From: an uncultured Methanomassiliicoccales archaeon
GTDB taxonomy: Archaea; Thermoplasmatota; Thermoplasmata; Methanomassiliicoccales; UBA472
Length of the DNA stretch: 64,000 nucleotides
Assembly (NCBI GenBank): GCA_963695345.1
Contig: OY968769.1
Coordinates: forward strand, 2,112,001-2,176,000
Direction: 5' to 3'
Part shown: positions 14,897 to 33,118 of the stretch, in pieces
How positions within the stretch are numbered: position 1 is the first letter of the stretch
How the letters are laid out: every line of letters begins with the position of its first letter
Position numbers and translations under genes: made by a program
Notes under the pieces: model-generated
Databases searched by the model: none
The model's input: only the letters and a program-made list of their open reading frames with translations
What the model was told of the DNA's origin: nothing

Positions 14897-15577
14897 ATGG
14901 GACTGAACAAAGAACACGTCCAAATGAGGAGATGGGACGATACCTACTACTCGACCTTGGATTACTTCGGCACGGGGGTAAGCCAGCTCGGAAGGCATGC
15001 CCTGATCATTTTTCAGAGCCATGAGGCCAGAAGGATCCTGCAGCTCGGCTGCGGGCCAGGCTATGACACGATCTACCTGGCCCAGAATGGTATGCAAGTG
15101 ACCGGGATGGATTATTCCGAGACAGCTCTTTGCAAGATAAGGGAGGATAGGATATCGAAGGGTTTGGAGGGTTCGATCGTGCTCAAGGTGGGTGATGCCA
15201 GAAACGGGCTTCCGTTCGATGACGAGGCGTTCGATGGCTGCTATTCCCACATGTTCTTCACCATGCAATTCCCGGAAAAGGAGCTGTTCTTCATCTTCTC
15301 CGAGGTCCTCAGAGTGCTGAAGCCCGGGGGACTTAACGTTTATTCCGTCCGAAATGTGAGCGATCCGCACTTCGGCATCGGAAGACACCTCGGGGAGGGC
15401 ATGTGGCAGAACCCGCTCGGGTTCGTGGTCCATTTCTTCGACGAGGATAAGGTAAGGCGACTGGCCAAAGGATATGATCTGCTCTGGATCAAGGAGTTCG
15501 ACGATCCTTCACCACCGTTTACCAAGAAGCTCTTCGAGGTGGCCCTGCAGAAACCCAAGAAAGCGGAAAATAAATGA
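14897..15577 (+). CDS. Class I SAM-dependent methyltransferase
   Basis: ILQLGCGPG, GMDYS, LPF..EAFD, RVLKPGG. Confidence 0.9.
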   Translation: MGLNKEHVQMRRWDDTYYSTLDYFGTGVSQLGRHALIIFQSHEARRILQLGCGPGYDTIYLAQNGMQVTGMDYSETALCKIREDRISKGLEGSIVLKVGDARNGLPFDDEAFDGCYSHMFFTMQFPEKELFFIFSEVLRVLKPGGLNVYSVRNVSDPHFGIGRHLGEGMWQNPLGFVVHFFDEDKVRRLAKGYDLLWIKEFDDPSPPFTKKLFEVALQKPKKAENK

Positions 15578-15635: not shown

Positions 15636-16931
15636 TCATTCTGTGTAGGTGTTCGAGCACCAGTAGGTGACCTTGTGGGATCGGATGGCGGTGTTCGGGT
15701 CGCTCACCATCTCGAAACTTGCCGGAGGCTCCACCGAGGCGGATCTGGTCTCAAGCAGGTACCTGCCTTTCACGGTCGAGTGGGTGGACAGGTCCCTGTC
15801 AATGGTCTCCAGGTCTAGTTGGGGTCTTGCGGCAGGACCGGAACGTTCGATGACCACGCCCAGGTCCTTGTTGGCGTAATGGTCTTCGATGGTCCGGATG
15901 TTCCAGTCGATGGATACCGGTGTGACCGATGGGTTGCGGTCCCGGATCAGCCATCCCTCACCGGACCGGGCGAGCTCTCCGCGACCGGGGATGCCCTCGA
16001 AATCGGATAGCATTTCGGTGATCTTCTTTGGCGACAGTCCCACCGCCGAAGCCACCCCCGCCGCCGCCGAAACCGCCGTGGTGTAGGAAGGGGCCAGATA
16101 TGTCGCCGGCATCGTGAACGGGAAATCTCCTTTCTTGACGTTGAGCCAGCACTTGGGCTTGTTGCCGAACTTCATCCCCTTTTCGAACGAGACGTTGATG
16201 TCCCCGAACTCCCCGAACTCGATGACCTGGGTCCCCTTCGGGATGAAGACCTTCCACATGTTGATCTCGGGATGTCTCAGCACCAGCGTTCCCTTGGTGG
16301 ATTTGACCATCTGGATGATCCCATCCACCGCCCTGCGGGTGCCGGCGGCGATGGGATAGTTGTCCCCCGATGCCGTGGTGACCACCCCGATATTCGCCAA
16401 TCCGGTCCCTCCCAGGTTGCATTCGAACACCCCCCTGGTCCATTCTCCTTCCATGAACGACAAACGCAATAACGTCGCCGGGGAGATCATGGCGTCACGT
16501 TCCAGCAATGTCACCGTCTCTCCGACCGAGAACAGGCCGCGAGACGTCAGCAACAGCACCTTCTCTCCCTTCTTCTTCAGGATATGGGAGATGGCATGGC
16601 AGGCAGAGGTCTTGGCCTTGGTACCGGTGACCTCTATGGTCGGGTAATTGAAATGGGCCAGCTCTCCGACCGCCCGGTGGAAGGTGATCTTCTGCTCATA
16701 CTTCGCCCGGCCAAGATAATGATCGGGACAATGGACCGGCACTACCGCCAGATCATATTTCTTCGAGGGGGTCGTTCTCACGACGGCCACGCCCTCGTTG
16801 CGCAAATGGTCGATCATATACTGTTCCGCGGTCCCATAGACGTCTACCGCGGTCACCTCCTCCCCCCGCGACCTATAGGTCAAGGCGAGGACGTCCCCTC
16901 CGTGGGTCAGATCGAGCACCAACACGTTCAT
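15636..16931 (-). CDS. cfbE: Coenzyme F430 synthetase (Mur-ligase-like)
   Basis: VLVLDLTHGG, PVHCP, ITFHRAVGEL, IEVTGTKAKTS, LGGTG, NYPIAAG, FEGIPGR. Confidence 0.85.
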   Translation of the reverse strand: MNVLVLDLTHGGDVLALTYRSRGEEVTAVDVYGTAEQYMIDHLRNEGVAVVRTTPSKKYDLAVVPVHCPDHYLGRAKYEQKITFHRAVGELAHFNYPTIEVTGTKAKTSACHAISHILKKKGEKVLLLTSRGLFSVGETVTLLERDAMISPATLLRLSFMEGEWTRGVFECNLGGTGLANIGVVTTASGDNYPIAAGTRRAVDGIIQMVKSTKGTLVLRHPEINMWKVFIPKGTQVIEFGEFGDINVSFEKGMKFGNKPKCWLNVKKGDFPFTMPATYLAPSYTTAVSAAAGVASAVGLSPKKITEMLSDFEGIPGRGELARSGEGWLIRDRNPSVTPVSIDWNIRTIEDHYANKDLGVVIERSGPAARPQLDLETIDRDLSTHSTVKGRYLLETRSASVEPPASFEMVSDPNTAIRSHKVTYWCSNTYTE

Positions 16932-17090
16932 CTATCGAGTCTCCAGGCGGTCGCGATGGTAGTGCATGATTATAAAAAGGTCGCCACAAGCGTTGTCGTA
17001 CCAGCTCTAGAGACTTTTCTCCTGCCAACATTCGTAGCCATCAGATCAAGGCGACAGTTCTGGCGATCATATGTCCTTCATCGTTCGCCA

Positions 17091-17744
17091 TCACCATAGT
17101 CCGTAGAAAGGGCCGAAGAGGAAGAAGGCCACAACTCCGATGGTGTTGCTCAATCCGTGGGCCAGGACCGCCCCCCAGAGGTTGTTGTACTTCAGTTTGA
17201 CCAGGCTGAAGAAGACCGCATCAAGCCCGGTGACCACGATCCCGATCAGACCCTGTTCCATATGGGCAATCCCAAACAAAATGGAGGTGATCCCTATCGC
17301 CATCAGGATGCCCGTCCTGTTGTTTCCCAACAGATCAAGGATCCGGACCTGCAGGAAACCCCGATAGACGATCTCCTCCCCGATGGCAGCCAGCGTCCAG
17401 CTTGCCAACAGAAGGAAAACCAGGTCTCCAAGATTGCCCTTGAGGTCTACGAAAGCGCTGAGATCCTGGGTGCTCCCGGTCAGATGGTTCATCAGCGGCA
17501 TGGTCAAGGCCTGGTGTAATAACGTCCAGGCCATGACCATTATGAAGATGACAGTGATCATCCTCAAGGGGCGCTCCAACTTCCTGAAGCCGAGCGAACC
17601 TAAACCCTGTTTGCGTGCGACCAGGGATATCGCGCATATTCCCAAGATGACGATGGTGGGGATGAACAGGTCCAGGACAATCACGGTCATGGCCAGAGCC
17701 AATTCGAGTAAGGTGATGACCTTCCAGAACACATCGCGGTCCAT
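17091..17744 (-). CDS. CPBP-family (CAAX/Abi) intramembrane metalloprotease
   Basis: EEIVYRG, FGIAH, AHGLSN; start uncertain. Confidence 0.9.
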   Translation of the reverse strand: MDRDVFWKVITLLELALAMTVIVLDLFIPTIVILGICAISLVARKQGLGSLGFRKLERPLRMITVIFIMVMAWTLLHQALTMPLMNHLTGSTQDLSAFVDLKGNLGDLVFLLLASWTLAAIGEEIVYRGFLQVRILDLLGNNRTGILMAIGITSILFGIAHMEQGLIGIVVTGLDAVFFSLVKLKYNNLWGAVLAHGLSNTIGVVAFFLFGPFYGLW

Positions 17745-17961
17745 TATATCGTCAAGACCCAAAAACATGATTGATTCTTTATATTTTCCGAGATGGATGG
17801 GATATGGGGTGAATTCCGGATTATTCCGATGCTCGATCATTGGCATGGTCTGGCGATAACCATGGGTTAGAATTGACCAATTGTGACCTTCGACCAAATT
17901 CTATGTCCACCCTCGATGGCAAACGGTTTCGAGCACCCGGTCGATCATGGATGGTTCATTT

Positions 17962-19380
17962 TCAGGGCACGTTCTTGGAGAACACGTCAAATCCCAGGCT
18001 TCTGCCCAGTTCCTTGGCGGTGCGCGGCACATCGGCCAGCTGCCCTCCCCCTTCGTATTGGATCCAGTATGTGCGGGACAGTTCGTCCAGCGCCTCCAAG
18101 GGGGTCACGCCGGACATGGAGCCATCCGAGAGCATCGCCTCTATCCTGGTATAGGCCCGGATCGACAGGAACGCCGTGAACATATGGCCGTCGATGGTCT
18201 CCCGGTCCACCAGGAACTCCCGGTCTTGGCCCATGGTCTTGCGGTATTCCGCGAAAAGCCGGTCTATGGCATCCCTTCGGCGGTATAGGCGGTAGATGTC
18301 CTCTTCGGCCCCGTCCTTGTCCGAGGCCATCATGATGCATCCGGCGATATGGCTCCGGTCCACGACGCTCTGCTCGGCGAGCCGTTTCTCATCCAGCATG
18401 CGGTACAGGGTCATCTCCTCCTCCATTTTCAGCTGGGCGTCCTGGTAGAGGTAAAGCCACATGCCCTTGTGCTGCCTTTTGCCGCACTTGATGAGATGCT
18501 TGTCATGAAAGAAATGCCTTGCCAGGGGGATGTCCAGCTCGTAGAGGTCGCTGTCCCGGTTGACCGGCAGGACAAAGGAGGCATGCCGCTGCAATAGCAG
18601 AGAGACCAAATCCTCCGAGAAGGAGTCCCTTTCCAGAACCATGGTTATGCCCTCCCCACCGATATCGTTGAGGAGCTTGTGCATCGGACCAGGCTCCCCG
18701 ACCGGGTTGGACAGCGTCCGCACCATGGTGGGTGCGCCAGTGTCAGCTGAGAAAATCATTGCCAGGTTTATCTTCTGCAGCAGACCCGACTCCTCCGGGC
18801 TGCGGCCGATGAGGTCCGTCTGCTCGGAACGGGTGAAATTGGCCGACATGCCGTAGACCACCTCGTCACCGGCAACGCACATGCCGTTGAACACCTTCGC
18901 CTGGGCCTTCTTGTCCTGCCCGACCCGGCGGAGCATCTCGGCCAGTCGTTTCGGCGTCAGGTCAGGCTTGATCCCGGGAATGTTATACAGTTTATCCCAT
19001 GCGTTCTGCGCCCTGCGCAAGGGAACGTCGCCGAGCACCCTGACCATTGCCAGGGCATACAGCTCCTGCCAATCATCTGGGAATGCGGAACGGATCTGTT
19101 CCAGGATATCTGACATGGAGCGGTTGAGGAGGACAGCGTTTCCATACTGTTTCACCACCCTTTCGTTGGCGGGGACCAGCACGCTCTCCTTCTCCTGAAG
19201 CCCCTTCGTCTCGTCCAGGCGACCAATGTACTTGGACCTCTTCTTCCGCTTCTTCTCTTCCTTGTCCCAAACCGTGGTGGAGCGATAGACGTAGTACGAG
19301 GAACCGATCTTCTTGATCTCGAGCCCCTTGGTGCCCTGTTCCCTCTGCCCTTTCAACCAATTCGCCGCCCACTCGTCCAT
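17962..19380 (-). mobile_element. IS1634-family transposase-derived ORF, intact but catalytic residues substituted
   Basis: N-terminal LEIKKIGSSYYVYRSTTVWDKEEKK..SKYIGRL and overall layout match archaeal IS1634-type transposases (recognised by eye); expected YD/DRG/E motifs read YGMS, LERD, IDRLF; no terminal repeats recognised. Confidence 0.8.
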
Positions 19381-19551
19381 CGGTACAAGATAGGGTATAA
19401 ATGATATTAAACAATTACTCGATGGCGATGAATCCAGCATATTTATCATTGCGACAATGGAATCCCTAATTATTCCCTACTATTGGGGCAAATCATTTAT
19501 ATTTAGGGTGGTAATCGACGACCTCGAACGGAATCTTAGGGGATTCACAAA

Positions 19552-20493
19552 ATGGCAACCTCACGCAAATTGATGGCATTGACCGTGATCGCAGTCCTGC
19601 TGGTGGCCGGCCTCGGTGCGGTCGTCGTACTCTCATTGAACAATAACAATAACGGCTCAAAAGCGGTCGATCAGTCGACGACCATAAGCGTCATCGATGA
19701 CCGGGGTGTGAACGTGACCGTCACGAAATATCCCCAGCACATACTGTCGCTGGGAACCGCCTTCACTGAGTGCCTGTACGCCATCGGCGCCCAGGACCAG
19801 ATCGTCGGCGTGGACAGCACCAGCAAATACCCAGCGGAGGTTTCCAACAAGACCAACATCGGGAGCGCCTACACCATCAACCTGGAGAACGTGACCATGC
19901 TCCAGCCCGACCTCATCATTATGTGGAAGTCATACACCACATCGCTGAACGCATTGGTCAACCTGAACATGACCGTCATCGCTTTCGACCCGCAGTCGGT
20001 GGCCGACGTTGAGAAGATGATCAACCTGCTCGGGAACGTCACCGGCAAAACCGGCGGGGCGAATCTGGTCGTCACCGACATGCAGGACCGCATCGCCGAG
20101 GTGCAGCAGAAGCTGGCCAACGAGACCACCAGGCCCGATGTTTACATGGAGCTGCTCAGCTCCGGCGGCAAGTCTCCCGGTCCAGGCACCATGACCGATA
20201 ACGTGATCGGCATCGCCGGCGGGAACAACATCAACTCAAACACGACCGCCAGATATACCAAGCTCACCGCCGAGTATGTCATAGGCGAGGACCCGGAGTT
20301 CATCGTCCTGGAGATCCAGAACACCAAGACCAACGACCAGGTCAAGAACACCACCGGGTACGGAACGATAAGCGCCGTTGTGAACGACAAGATCATGCGG
20401 GTCGATGGAGCGTGGCTCACCGCGTCGCCCAGGATCGTCCTGGCGGTCGAGGCGTTCGCCTCCTGGTTCCATCCGGAGCTCTTTCCAGCTTAA
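19552..20493 (+). CDS. btuF: Cobalamin/Fe-siderophore ABC transporter substrate-binding protein
   Basis: N-terminal TM anchor, VIDDRGVNVT..PQHILSL, YAIGA.DQIVGVD, QPDLI, SPRI. Confidence 0.85.
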   Translation: MATSRKLMALTVIAVLLVAGLGAVVVLSLNNNNNGSKAVDQSTTISVIDDRGVNVTVTKYPQHILSLGTAFTECLYAIGAQDQIVGVDSTSKYPAEVSNKTNIGSAYTINLENVTMLQPDLIIMWKSYTTSLNALVNLNMTVIAFDPQSVADVEKMINLLGNVTGKTGGANLVVTDMQDRIAEVQQKLANETTRPDVYMELLSSGGKSPGPGTMTDNVIGIAGGNNINSNTTARYTKLTAEYVIGEDPEFIVLEIQNTKTNDQVKNTTGYGTISAVVNDKIMRVDGAWLTASPRIVLAVEAFASWFHPELFPA

Positions 20494-20628
20494 TTGAATG
20501 CAGATGGGCGCGCGGCCGTTGCGCATCGTGGAGCTTCCCTTGCCTCCTTTGTTCCCACGATGCCTCCCGCCGTCCATTCCCCTTTTTCGCCACAGTTTAT
20601 GAATGAGTAAGCGTTTGCAGGATGCGCG

Positions 20629-21705
20629 ATGACGATGGATCAGAAGGGCATCGAGGAGATGCACACCCAGAAGCTGCACCGGTGGTGGCTAACCATGGTG
20701 TTCCTGACACTGGCTCTATTCGCGGTCGCCATCGTGGCCATCGGGATCGGTTCGACGAGCATATCGCCGGACCGGATCATCGCCGCCATCTTCTCAAATG
20801 ACCTGGTACGGGTGATGACCGGGCAGCACGCTTCCAATCCCATCAACGCTGTCGTGCTCGAGGTTCGGATGCCGCGGATCCTCATCGGGGCGTTGGTCGG
20901 TGCCTCGCTGGCCGTCGCCGGAACCGCCATGCAGGGCATATTCCGCAATCCCATGGCCTCGCCGTACATCCTCGGGCTGTCCTCCGGCGCTGCGTTCGGC
21001 GCGTCGTTGGCAATCGTTCTGGGCTTCTCTGTGGTCAGCGGCGCTTTCGCCGTCCCGGCGATGGCGTTCATCTTCTGCTTCGTAACGCTGTTCATCGTCT
21101 ACGGCATATCCGCCACCAAGATGGGAGTCCCGGTGACCACGCTCCTCCTCGCCGGGATCGCGGTCGGCTCGCTCTTCACCGCCCTGGTCTCCCTGATGAA
21201 GTACTTTTCCGGCGACAACCTAAGCTCCATCGTCTATTGGATGATGGGTGGCCTATGGGAAAGCAACTGGTCCCAGGTCTGGGTGACGATGCCCCTGGTG
21301 GTTCTTGGTTCCGCTGCCTTGCTGTTCTATAGCAAGGAGCTCAACCTCATGATGGTCGGAGAGGAGCACGCCACCAACCTGGGGGTGAACGTCAGGCGCT
21401 CCCGTTTGATGATACTCATCCTGTCCTCCTTGGTCACCGCTGCGGCGGTCTCGGTCAGCGGGGTCATCGGATTCGTTGGTCTCATCGTACCTCACACCCT
21501 GCGCATCATCCTGGGTCCGGACAATCGCATACTCATGCCCGCATCCATCGTGGGCGGGGCGGCGTTCATGATCGGTATGGACTCGATCGCCCGGACCATC
21601 CTGTCGCCGGCAGAACTACCGGTCGGCATCATCACCGCGCTATTGGGAGCGCCGTTCTTCCTCTGGCTGCTGCGGGCGCGCAAGCGTGACATTTGGGGGT
21701 GGTAG
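20629..21705 (+). CDS. btuC: FecCD/BtuC ABC permease
   Basis: RMPRI, QGIFRNPMASPYILGLSSGA, GVIGFVGLIVPH, ELPVGIITALLGAPFF. Confidence 0.9.
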   Translation: MTMDQKGIEEMHTQKLHRWWLTMVFLTLALFAVAIVAIGIGSTSISPDRIIAAIFSNDLVRVMTGQHASNPINAVVLEVRMPRILIGALVGASLAVAGTAMQGIFRNPMASPYILGLSSGAAFGASLAIVLGFSVVSGAFAVPAMAFIFCFVTLFIVYGISATKMGVPVTTLLLAGIAVGSLFTALVSLMKYFSGDNLSSIVYWMMGGLWESNWSQVWVTMPLVVLGSAALLFYSKELNLMMVGEEHATNLGVNVRRSRLMILILSSLVTAAAVSVSGVIGFVGLIVPHTLRIILGPDNRILMPASIVGGAAFMIGMDSIARTILSPAELPVGIITALLGAPFFLWLLRARKRDIWGW

Positions 21706-21706
21706 G

Positions 21707-22512
21707 TTGGAACTGATGGTGGACGGGGTCACCTTCAACTATACCAGCGTTCCAGTGTTGGACGGGGTATCCTTCGATGCCAGGGGTGGAGAGGTCATCG
21801 GCATCATTGGCCACAACGGCTGCGGCAAGACCACGTTGCTCAAATGCATCAACCTGGCGCTCCACCCCGGGTCGGGCGTGGTCAGGATCGACGGCAAGGA
21901 CACCCTCAGGATGTCTCGGAAGGACATCGCAAAGGAGGTCGGAGTGGTCGCGCAGAACACGGTCATCACCTTCCCCTTCACCGTCCTGGACATGGTCCTG
22001 ATGGGCCGCTTCCCTTCCCTGGAACGGTTCGCCAACGAGTCCAAGGACGACCTGAGGATCGCCATGGAGGCCATGGACGCGACCAGCGTTACCTACCTTG
22101 CCTCGAGGCCCATCGACGAGATCAGCGGCGGAGAACGGCAGCGGGTCATAATCGCCCGGGCATTGGCTCAGCAACCTAGGGCATTGCTCCTCGACGAACC
22201 GACACTCCATCTGGACATCAATCATCAGTTCGAACTGATGGAGCTGATCAGATCCCTGGCGAAAGAAAAGGGACTTCTGGTCATCATCGTGTCCCACGAT
22301 CTGAACCTGGCCGCCCGCTACTGCGACAAGCTGATAGCGTTGGACGAAGGCAAGATCGCCGCCGCGGGGCGGTGGGCGAAGTGCTCACGCCGGAGAACCT
22401 GGCCAAGGTGTTCAATATCCGGGCCGACGTCCGTTTCGATCAACGGGTCAGTTCATACGAGATAACAATTTTGGGAACGATCCCAAGGGAAGAAGAACAC
22501 CGTCTGTCGTGA
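21707..22512 (+). CDS. btuD: BtuD/FecE ABC ATPase, apparent frameshift near 22370
   Basis: GHNGCGKTT, ISGGERQR, LLDEPT, SHDLNLA; C-terminus EVLTPENLAKVF in another frame, stop at 22512. Confidence 0.88.
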
Positions 22513-22958
22513 GACGTTGGTAATTGGTCAGCCTAACATTGGAATTAAGGACCAGAGCTTAAAATCATCAATAGACGAATGAATGGTCATATTGAGGGAA
22601 GCAGGACAACCCGGATTTTGGAAAATGAAAAAAATTCCCTAACTCAACAATTAGCTTTTTAAAAAATTCTGTATCCGACCATGGCGAAAAGACCAGGCCA
22701 CATCACGGTCTAGAATCGTTTTCAGACGCGGATGGGAAGCGATCGATCTAGCGGTCCACGACCTGGGGCCAATCGACCTCGTTTCCACTTTAATGCGAAG
22801 GGAGAATCTAGCTCAAATATCCTTATTTGAGATGATTAGAAATTGGGTTGAAAAATGGAAAAACTGTGTCGAAGAACCCCATATTGGCAAGGCATCCTTC
22901 AACACATAAGGGATAGTTGAATCCGGGCTCGATCCTAACGGTTGATCCTCAGATCCGA

Positions 22959-23402: not shown

Positions 23403-23657
23403 ACAGATCCCTTAGGTCATGAAATACAGTCACCGGCAACCGGTCTGACCGCTGTTTCGTAAATGCTTTGGAGCTCCAGATATTTATAAGCACAGATTGG
23501 GGTCTGAATTGTCACGTACTTACTCTAATAGTTTGATCGGCGATGGTGTCTGGCCAATGATATAACGATGGATATTCCCTAATATGGAACATCTCTTCAT
23601 TTGTTATTCTGTAATAGGGAATACAATTCTACCGATATTGCCAAAATCGTTAGAGGG

Positions 23658-32962: not shown

Positions 32963-33118
32963 GGGTGTCCCGGTTTCGAATTTCCAAGGGTAAAATTCTC
33001 AATCCAGATGTTAGGGAATAACATTATAGAATGCTTCAAATAAGCATCCCCCTTATGTCCAATTCAAGGGGTTCGGTCCGTTCAACGGAACCGTTCGAAA
33101 GGCAGGGGGCGAACGTCG

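Follow-up and report, generated by a model that had tools for sequence, protein, structure and literature searches.

A single-copy IS1634-family transposase gene with a replaced DDE triad beside a btuFCD-like operon in Methanomassiliicoccales

The window analyzed here is a 64,000-nucleotide (nt) stretch of contig OY968769.1 (positions 2,112,001 to 2,176,000) from an uncultured Methanomassiliicoccales archaeon. It contains a minus-strand gene for a protein of 472 amino acids (aa) that is, by descent, a diverged transposase of the insertion sequence (IS) family IS1634, within the IS4/Tn5 superfamily. We found that the three residues of its Asp-Asp-Glu (DDE) catalytic triad have been replaced, that the gene is present once per genome at a fixed locus, and that it is kept under purifying selection. 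These data indicated that the gene was domesticated with loss of transposition, a well-supported conclusion that we hold with high confidence, the loss of activity itself being deduced from the sequence. As for the present role of the protein, we lean toward a domesticated transposase that acts as a regulator at its own promoter and that of the divergent btuF gene.

Descent of the protein and its replaced catalytic residues

The gene and the parts of its product are as follows (AF2, AlphaFold2; ORF, open reading frame; dN/dS, ratio of nonsynonymous to synonymous substitution rates).

17962..19380, minus strand: coding sequence of the domesticated IS1634-type transposase, 472 aa, TGA stop at 17962-17964 (ORF list, family profile, synteny, dN/dS)
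19147..19380, minus strand: N-terminal basic helix-plus-beta-sheet domain, residues 1-78, presumed DNA-binding module from the transposase (AF2 domain model, conservation)
18043..19143, minus strand: Tn5-transposase-like body, residues 80-446, comprising a helical DNA-binding part, an RNase-H-like core, and C-terminal helices (AF2 model, VIA-align, Foldseek)
18850..18852, minus strand: codon of G177, column of the first catalytic Asp (YDLS to YGMS, residues 176-179)
18631..18633, minus strand: codon of E250, column of the second catalytic Asp (LDRG to LERD, residues 249-252)
18262..18264, minus strand: codon of D373, column of the catalytic Glu in Y-(2)-R-(3)-E-(6)-K
18241-18243, minus strand: codon of R380, K column of Y-(2)-R-(3)-E-(6)-K, also changed

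The longest minus-strand frame, 17962..19449, encodes 495 aa, and the 472-aa form starts from an ATG at 19380. This ATG was taken as the right start because all orthologues begin at the equivalent codon, reading M-D/E-E-W-A, and because a TATA-like TTTAT box followed by CCCTAT, about 15-21 nt upstream, is conserved among the orthologous loci. An original prediction, made from the letters of the window, had described an uninterrupted 472-aa ORF with host-like GC-rich codons, divergent from btuFCD across about 170 bp. Each of these points held: the frame is open from 19380 to 17962, GC over 18000-19249 is 0.59-0.61 against 0.55-0.62 in the flanking genes, and the gap (19381-19551) is 171 bp.

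The IS1634 origin proposed in that prediction was borne out by a family profile, by the nesting of the protein in the tree described below, and by its fold. The NCBIfam IS1634 equivalog (NF033559) matched the 472-aa protein at 69.6 bits (E 2.6e-19), under its cut-off of 100, while P0023, a protein of a second genus that is 50% identical to it, scored 97 bits. Four relatives drawn from the set 22-41% identical to the window protein (P0025, P0029, P0044, and P0058) scored 136-167. Pfam DDE_Tnp_1 (threshold, 23 bits) gave 18.4 bits for the window protein, 32.6 for P0023, and 58-70 for P0025 and P0044; both profile scores drop with distance from the active elements. Aligned over its full length, the protein is 34-41% identical to IS1634 family members.

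A structure prediction of the RNase H core had been suggested in the original prediction, and the AF2 model of the whole protein, built on an alignment of 55 sequences (predicted local distance difference test [pLDDT] 85.4; predicted template modeling score 0.75), matched the Tn5 transposase. In VIA-align, model residues 80-446 gave Z 18.7 against the Tn5 (IS50) transposase 1muh_A (root mean square deviation 4.6 over 322 aligned residues) and Z 15.8 against the Tn5 inhibitor Inh (1b7e); the next fold family, piggyBac, lay far below at Z 10.9. Foldseek recovered the Tn5 match at E 2e-6. The Y-(2)-R-(3)-E-(6)-K signature of Tn5 is also carried by the family of the window protein, although the protein itself is only 7-11% identical to Tn5 structures and has an extra N-terminal beta-sheet domain; a sequence profile searched against the PDB found no meaningful match (best E, 0.21). 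That N-terminal domain (AF2 domain model, pLDDT 80.6) is the part most like active transposases, with a median identity of 55% versus 31-37% for the core and the C terminus.

The same 55-sequence alignment comprised the window protein together with proteins 81-88% identical to it (n = 20, hereafter the clade), distant relatives 22-41% identical (n = 34), and P0023 (n = 1). The column of the first catalytic Asp holds G in 20/20 clade members and D in all 35 others, P0023 included; the column of the second Asp holds E in 20/20 and D in 35/35; and that of the catalytic Glu holds D in 20/20 and E in 35/35. Taken with the K column, the reading is G/E/D/R throughout the clade, D/D/E/K in 34/34 distant relatives, and D/D/E/R in P0023. 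Across the wider family, D/D/E is retained in 86 of 91 full-length representatives of 50%-identity clusters. The clade motifs fall under YDLS, LDRG, R-D/E-x-V-E-K-x-F-D, GYNK, and LPGSVxD of the DDE-intact relatives: RRDAIDRLF occupies residues 368-376, a GRSP-like motif (starting at residue 192) replaces GYNK, and LSNPVGE (SNPVGE at 224) replaces LPGSVxD. LERD also brings a new acidic residue, Asp252, which is invariant in 20/20 clade members.

The motifs YGMS, LERD, RDAIDRLF, GRS, and SNPVGE had been read by recall in the original prediction; the readings and their positions were exact in the computed alignment. An intact triad elsewhere in the protein, which would have spoken against the prediction, is not what the alignment gave: the D/D/E columns lie where they had been placed, and G/E/D stands in them. 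The replacement is not a chance event in one sequence, since it is invariant in 20/20 clade members against D/D/E in 34/34 distant relatives. Thus, the window protein is predicted to be catalytically dead.

Another database representative, P0085 (455 aa, 31% identical to the window protein), is full-length with all three triad columns replaced (G/G/L). Its cluster has 2 member sequences, and its nearest kin, 45% identical, has an intact Pfam DDE domain. P0085 lacks conserved close kin and was not called a second domesticated lineage; it may represent an independent inactivation or simply a decaying copy.

Copy number, synteny, selection, and ancestry

The 2.56-Mb single-contig genome holds one full copy of the gene. 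Besides it, there are a 109-aa C-terminal relic of an IS1634-type transposase outside the window (G000:C1:2247028-2247357, locus L002; 28% identical, with an internal TAG) and one weak 100-aa match. No inverted repeats flank the gene: the best candidate (17900-17913 / 19505-19518; 14 nt, 79% complementarity), one among 59 such pairs, shows neither conservation nor any likeness to the family tips and was put down to chance. The 13-nt repeat tip of the family is absent from 17800-19650 at up to 3 mismatches, and no exact match to it exists anywhere in the genome. At the eight related loci, likewise, no tips flank the gene, near-matches (at most 2 of 11 mismatches) being confined to coding sequence. 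A profile of the intergenic region, run with nhmmer over the genome, found only the locus itself and no dispersed copies, and nothing after the stop codon convincingly resembles the right repeat found in active elements.

Among 40 related genomes, all seven other species of the genus hold exactly one match (82-88% identity). The gene adjoins the same CfbE-like gene in 7/7 of these congeners and btuFCD in 6/7, and none of the eight orthologues of the genus (8/8) has an internal stop. Nei-Gojobori dN/dS has a median of 0.083 and a range of 0.051-0.125 across 28/28 pairs, figures that are approximate because dS (median, 1.0) is near saturation. The medians at this locus are as follows.

Transposase-derived gene: 0.083
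CfbE-like gene: 0.060
btuC: 0.072
btuF: 0.138
btuD: 0.043

By domain, dN/dS was 0.063 (N-terminal), 0.109, 0.080 (former catalytic core), and 0.065; the former core is under the same degree of constraint as the other domains.

Several expectations of the original prediction could be compared with these data. Terminal inverted repeats, which it had failed to see, are missing from the window locus, and the tips are missing at the 8 related loci as well; multiple identical copies with terminal repeats and target duplications were not found, the genome holding one full copy plus the 109-aa relic. Single-copy syntenic orthologues turned up in 7/7 congeners, and dN/dS below 1 was obtained in 28/28 pairs at values like those of the neighbors. 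Its central claim, domestication with selection on a function other than transposition, is therefore supported, as the tests of triad, copy number, orthologues, and selection all favor it. Of the two roles that it had offered, a transcription factor or a dominant-negative repressor of active IS copies, we consider the second the less likely.

In a quick IQ-TREE phylogeny rooted on the most distant sequence, the G/E/D clade was monophyletic (SH-aLRT, 100%), and the clade plus P0023 was nested among DDE-intact transposases (SH-aLRT, 100%), with stem branches of 0.58-0.64 versus tips of about 0.05. P0023 comes from genome G010 of the second genus. Its gene points away from a neighboring btuF homologue (37% identity) and is not bordered by inverted repeats, and its 5′ flank contains the motifs seen at the domesticated loci; no close kin of P0023 were found in the databases. 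Counted over the taxonomic family (47 genomes, 8 genera), the gene is present in 8/8 genomes of the window genus and in the single genome (1/1) of the second, and in 0/38 genomes of the other six genera, where one active-type copy at 34% identity was found. An exhaustive search of 1.84 billion representatives returned one full-length cluster for the clade, the next match being 39% identical. G010 also carries, on contigs C8, C13, and C36, four active-type IS1634 copies of full length (35-37% identity), and an internal TAA interrupts two of these.

The simplest history that we infer starts from a single insertion next to btuF that predates the split of the two genera, followed by loss of the ends and then of the triad. 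An IS would have inserted beside the btuFCD-like promoter in an ancestor shared by these two related Methanomassiliicoccales genera, and the cleavage-proximal tips of both terminal repeats would then have been lost. The sister-genus copy, immobilized with an intact triad, is an apparent intermediate. Later, in the window genus, D to G, D to E, and E to D changes at the triad and K to R in Y-R-E-K would have followed, and the whole protein of about 470 aa would since have been kept by purifying selection as a single-copy chromosomal gene.

The retained left end and the proposed role at two promoters

The closest active relatives are of the P0025 type, 41% identical to the window protein, in elements of about 1.56 kb on loci L067 and L068; both loci came from a metagenome scan, and no such relative was confirmed in the genome contigs. 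The L067/L068-type element begins 116 nt before its ATG. Its left repeat consists of the tip CCTTAACTCCG, a few bases, and then TTAGGGTATAAG; in active relatives, tip-N-TTAGGG stands at −100. The right repeat is the inverse of the left and includes the stop (TTC CCT AAT TAA, or F-P-N-stop). Just 5′ of the ATG lies the 13-mer CCCTATTACCGTA, which is common to several orthologous loci. The ends of the active relatives read CCTTAACT. Three copies in G010 have about 1560 bp in common at 88-90% identity, with CCTYAACTC... inverted-repeat ends, and two of the three carry 6-bp duplications (TATATA and TATCTA). Among the other active types in related genomes, CCCTA occurs at −14..−18 in 5/6 types, and TATTCCCTAA or CTACCCTAA occurs in the right repeat. 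The active relatives fit the size, ends, and duplications given for the IS1634 family in its published description (1500-2000 bp, ends C-----YT, 5-6 bp AT-rich duplications; De Palmenaer et al. 2008, PMC2266710). Duplicated TATA-like targets were seen at L033, L034, L067, L068, and L015 (TATATA, TATCTA, about TATAA, and TTAAAAA). A preference for TATA-box-like targets would account for the insertion of the ancestor at a promoter.

Two features lie between the transposase-derived gene and btuF.

19381..19483, minus strand: former IS left end kept as 5′ flank and promoter (motif positions compared with active relatives)
19494..19508, plus strand: conserved block just outside the old IS boundary, a TATA-like box then TAGGG, upstream of btuF (8/8 genus loci)

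In the window, the left-end motifs are TTTATA at 19396-19401, CCCTA at 19391-19395 (−15), and TAGGG at 19475-19479 (−99) and 19464-19468 (−88). They sit amid otherwise diverged intergenic sequence, at positions that compare with other loci as follows.

Active element (L067, L068): TAGGG at −100, inside the left repeat; CCCTA at −16
Domesticated gene, 8/8 genus loci: TAGGG at −97..−103 and −85..−91; CCCTA at −14..−17 and −125..−131
P0023 locus: TAGGG at −101; CCCTA at −15

Thus, the locus has kept some 100 nt of the former left end, including the inner repeat and the promoter-proximal motifs, and has lost the cleavage-proximal tips. At the other end, the C-terminal F-P-K/N of active elements, encoded inside the right repeat, has become F-S/A/T-K/R/G in the clade (F-S-K-N-V-P in the window genome), and the right-end CCCTAA is therefore gone. 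The five TAGGG/CCCTA pentamers within 170 bp form the densest cluster in the genome, which has 2016 occurrences in all and only 2 places with at least 4; the pentamer was picked after the locus had been seen, and its positional conservation across species is the stronger argument. The block at 19494..19508 is a putative btuF promoter or operator.

The 9-mer TATTCCCTA, which this IS group carries in its inner repeat and at −16, has 10 copies in the 2.56-Mb genome, four of them within 14 kb (19471, 23573, 23615, and 33012). The copies at 23573 and 23615 form an intergenic inverted pair (window 23571-23625: TATTCCCTAAT, 31 nt, TAGGGAATA), the one at 33011-33019 lies between divergent ORFs, and a near-copy is found at 22634-22642. 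The extra sites may be further binding sites or relics of old IS ends.

Transposases commonly autoregulate by binding the left repeat where it overlaps their own promoter, a habit that would have pre-adapted this protein to a regulator role. We propose that it no longer cuts DNA yet would still recognize the ancestral inner-repeat motif (of the TTAGGG/CCCTAA type) through its conserved N-terminal domain together with the Tn5-like body. The N-terminal region, the candidate for this contact, resembles active transposases more closely (55% identity) than the core and the C terminus do. Sequence-specific DNA binding is, in our judgment, the probable function. Relative to its own start codon, the predicted sites are those near −100, −88, and −16, plus one near −128 that adjoins the TATA-like box of btuF. 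Binding at −16, at its own TATA-like box, and at −128..−88, on the btuF side, would control both promoters; that these two promoters specifically are the ones regulated is plausible from the motif positions, and we hold it tentatively. A dimer might further pair sites in the way that a transpososome pairs ends. Such a transcription factor, looping about 100 bp between the motifs at −128, −100, −88, and −16 and co-controlling its own promoter and that of the importer, is a speculative and rather unlikely elaboration.

Several observations weigh against a regulator at these promoters. Likely promoter and ribosome-binding elements overlap with these conserved pentamers, which could therefore be conserved as parts of those elements instead, and one further copy, at −161, falls in the btuF leader. 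The additional TATTCCCTA sites were not accepted as a conserved regulon, the 23573/23615 pair failing to align in the one relative covered. For the N-terminal domain (residues 1-80), Foldseek against the PDB returned nothing at E of 0.001 or below (best, 0.58), and the best VIA-align hit among 48,161 chains was a glutamate-receptor domain at Z 5.3, within background. Shared gene order inside a single genus is a weak sign of a functional link, and in one congener, G001, btuF is not adjacent, the assembly being 55% complete with other genes upstream. The estimates of constraint come from dS of about 1. Acidic residues remain at two triad positions (E250 and D373) in addition to the new Asp252, and these three may allow residual metal binding. 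Finally, the sister-genus copy looks equally immobile yet has D-D-E intact, so loss of catalysis was not needed for retention.

An alternative is that the protein serves, in analogy to the Tn5 inhibitor protein, as a transposition inhibitor or immunity factor, which would compete for the ends of incoming IS1634 relatives or form inactive mixed complexes with their transposases. The N-terminal DNA-binding region and the inner-repeat motif are conserved with active elements, and the modeled fold matches the Tn5 inhibitor 1b7e strongly (Z 15.8). Copies of the active type (at least 34% identity) are absent from G000, G001, G003, G005, G006, and G007 and number one each in G002 and G004, while the sister-genus genome, whose own copy is D-D-E, has four at 35-37%, two with an internal stop. 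However, most other genera lack both the elements and the gene (37/38 genomes without a match), and a low IS load therefore needs no inhibitor. The core and the C-terminal, dimerization parts are only 31-37% identical to active transposases, which is poor for mixed complexes, and the protein keeps its N-terminal domain as its most conserved part, unlike the Tn5 inhibitor, which lacks the N-terminal DNA-binding part. Strong, uniform purifying selection across the genus would also be unusual for defense against a rare element. We thus consider this explanation unlikely and rate it below promoter regulation.

The protein might instead have a host function unrelated to the neighboring promoters, as an architectural or chromatin protein or as a partner of the CfbE-like ligase. 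Constraint extends across the whole protein, beyond the DNA-binding part, and the transposase-derived gene and the CfbE-like paralogue are each specific to the genus and lie side by side in 7/7 congeners. On the other hand, the sister-genus copy has no CfbE-like neighbor, a protease gene separates the two genes in the window genome, and the repeat-derived motifs conserved in position in the 5′ flank point to recognition at the locus. This explanation, too, appears improbable to us.

It is very improbable that the protein is still an enzyme, with the acidic cluster E250, D252, and D373 driving a site-specific nuclease or recombinase at fixed sites. Carboxylates at two triad positions, the invariance of Asp252 in 20/20, and a former core as constrained as the rest (dN/dS, 0.080) would suit such an enzyme, and the syntenic D-D-E copy of the sister genus shows that an immobilized copy with an intact site can be retained. 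Yet the first Asp is Gly in 20/20 clade members, the K of Y-R-E-K, the GYNK loop, and LPGSVxD are all altered, and the DDE_Tnp_1 score is 18.4 bits (threshold, 23) versus 58-70 in active relatives. In the DDE enzymes studied, moreover, single conservative swaps at the triad are reported to abolish activity, from mutagenesis of Tn5 transposase and integrase.

Lastly, a decaying IS relic that has yet to acquire stops would explain the missing terminal repeats and triad but is refuted by the selection data, given a full frame in all eight species at dS of about 1, dN/dS of 0.051-0.125 in 28/28 pairs, and the same substitutions in 20/20 database homologues, and recent transfer of one sequence is argued against by the 82-88% identities and the co-diverged neighboring genes.

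Neighboring genes, comparable systems, and significance

Three further features of the locus are listed here.

19552..22465, plus strand: BtuF/BtuC/BtuD-like ATP-binding cassette (ABC) importer operon, with genes at 19552-20493, 20629-21705, and 21686-22465 (NCBIfam)
17091..17897, minus strand: CPBP-type intramembrane protease gene, between the transposase-derived and CfbE-like genes
15636..16931, minus strand: CfbE-like (coenzyme F430 synthase-like) Mur-ligase paralogue, downstream and codirectional (F430_CfbE, 233 bits; cut-off, 250)

In NCBIfam, the highest-scoring models for the operon products are BtuF, BtuC, and a corrinoid ABC ATPase, all under the equivalog cut-offs. A search for RNA sequencing runs covering 17000-21000 listed none, an outcome with no bearing on expression. 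The CPBP gene had no tblastn match in 8 related loci and is confined to the window genome in this comparison; the conserved CfbE-like leader (ACCATCG-GACCG-CTGGAGA) is kept downstream of it. CfbE-like matches at 87-94% identity are confined to this genus, and those in other genera reach at most 51%. A second CfbE-like copy, 44-47% identical and similar to the one copy that other genera have, is present in four congeners; this query recovered just the genus-specific type from G000, G005, and G007. An MduS-like methyltransferase gene lies at 14897-15577. The CfbE-like, MduS-like, and BtuFCD-like genes may form a genus-specific cofactor-related cluster.

The active IS1634 elements (the P0025 type at L067/L068, and L033-L035) resemble the window gene in length, domain order, and N-terminal domain (55%), and their −16 CCCTA and −100 TAGGG are placed as in its 5′ flank. 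In contrast to these mobile elements, the window gene has no repeat tips and no definable target duplication, its ends not being identifiable; it is syntenic, has D-D-E replaced, scores under the NCBIfam cut-off, and stays at a fixed locus with one copy per genome in 8/8 genus genomes. As to the structurally similar Inh, an active element makes it as an N-terminally truncated form; it does not come from a host gene of its own whose active site is mutated.

Transposase domestication is well documented in eukaryotes, where FHY3/FAR1 (Mutator-like) and CENP-B (pogo) are domesticated DDE transposases that became DNA-binding factors. With these, the window gene shares single-copy immobile orthologues, purifying selection, lost repeats, and an often mutated triad with the DNA-binding domain kept; they are eukaryotic and of other superfamilies, whereas the present case is archaeal and of the IS4/IS1634 lineage. 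The known prokaryotic examples belong to other enzyme classes, namely Cas1, Cas9/Cas12 and TldR from TnpB, and RAYTs. In its logic, the present case is nearest to TldR among prokaryotic precedents: these TnpB-like nuclease-dead repressors descend from a transposon-encoded nuclease that gave up catalysis and came to serve as a transcription factor (bioRxiv 10.1101/2023.11.30.569447). TldR derives from an RNA-guided RuvC nuclease (IS200/IS605-type) and is targeted by guide RNA, whereas the window protein has a DDE, RNase-H-fold origin, would recognize DNA by protein contacts, and has a regulatory role that is predicted. RAYTs are bacterial single-copy, vertically inherited transposase relatives (PMC3333891, PMC8049555); unlike the window protein, they are HUH/Y1 enzymes, catalytically active, and act on dispersed REP sequences, and no dispersed partner repeats of the intergenic region were found in the window genome. 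In open-access full text and bioRxiv, we found neither a report of a dead single-copy IS4/IS1634 transposase as a bacterial or archaeal host gene nor functional data on the present gene.

As a case of domestication, this one is exceptionally clear-cut: the usual sequence-based marks all appear, the ancestral element type is identifiable, and the retained cis motifs map base for base onto the left end of the ancestor. The locus offers a testable system for how a prokaryote may turn a selfish DNA-binding enzyme into a regulator, and, if the proposal is true, the two genera would represent a stepwise natural series of transposase-to-regulator domestication in prokaryotes. For Methanomassiliicoccales, it means that genes annotated as "transposase" can be host genes.

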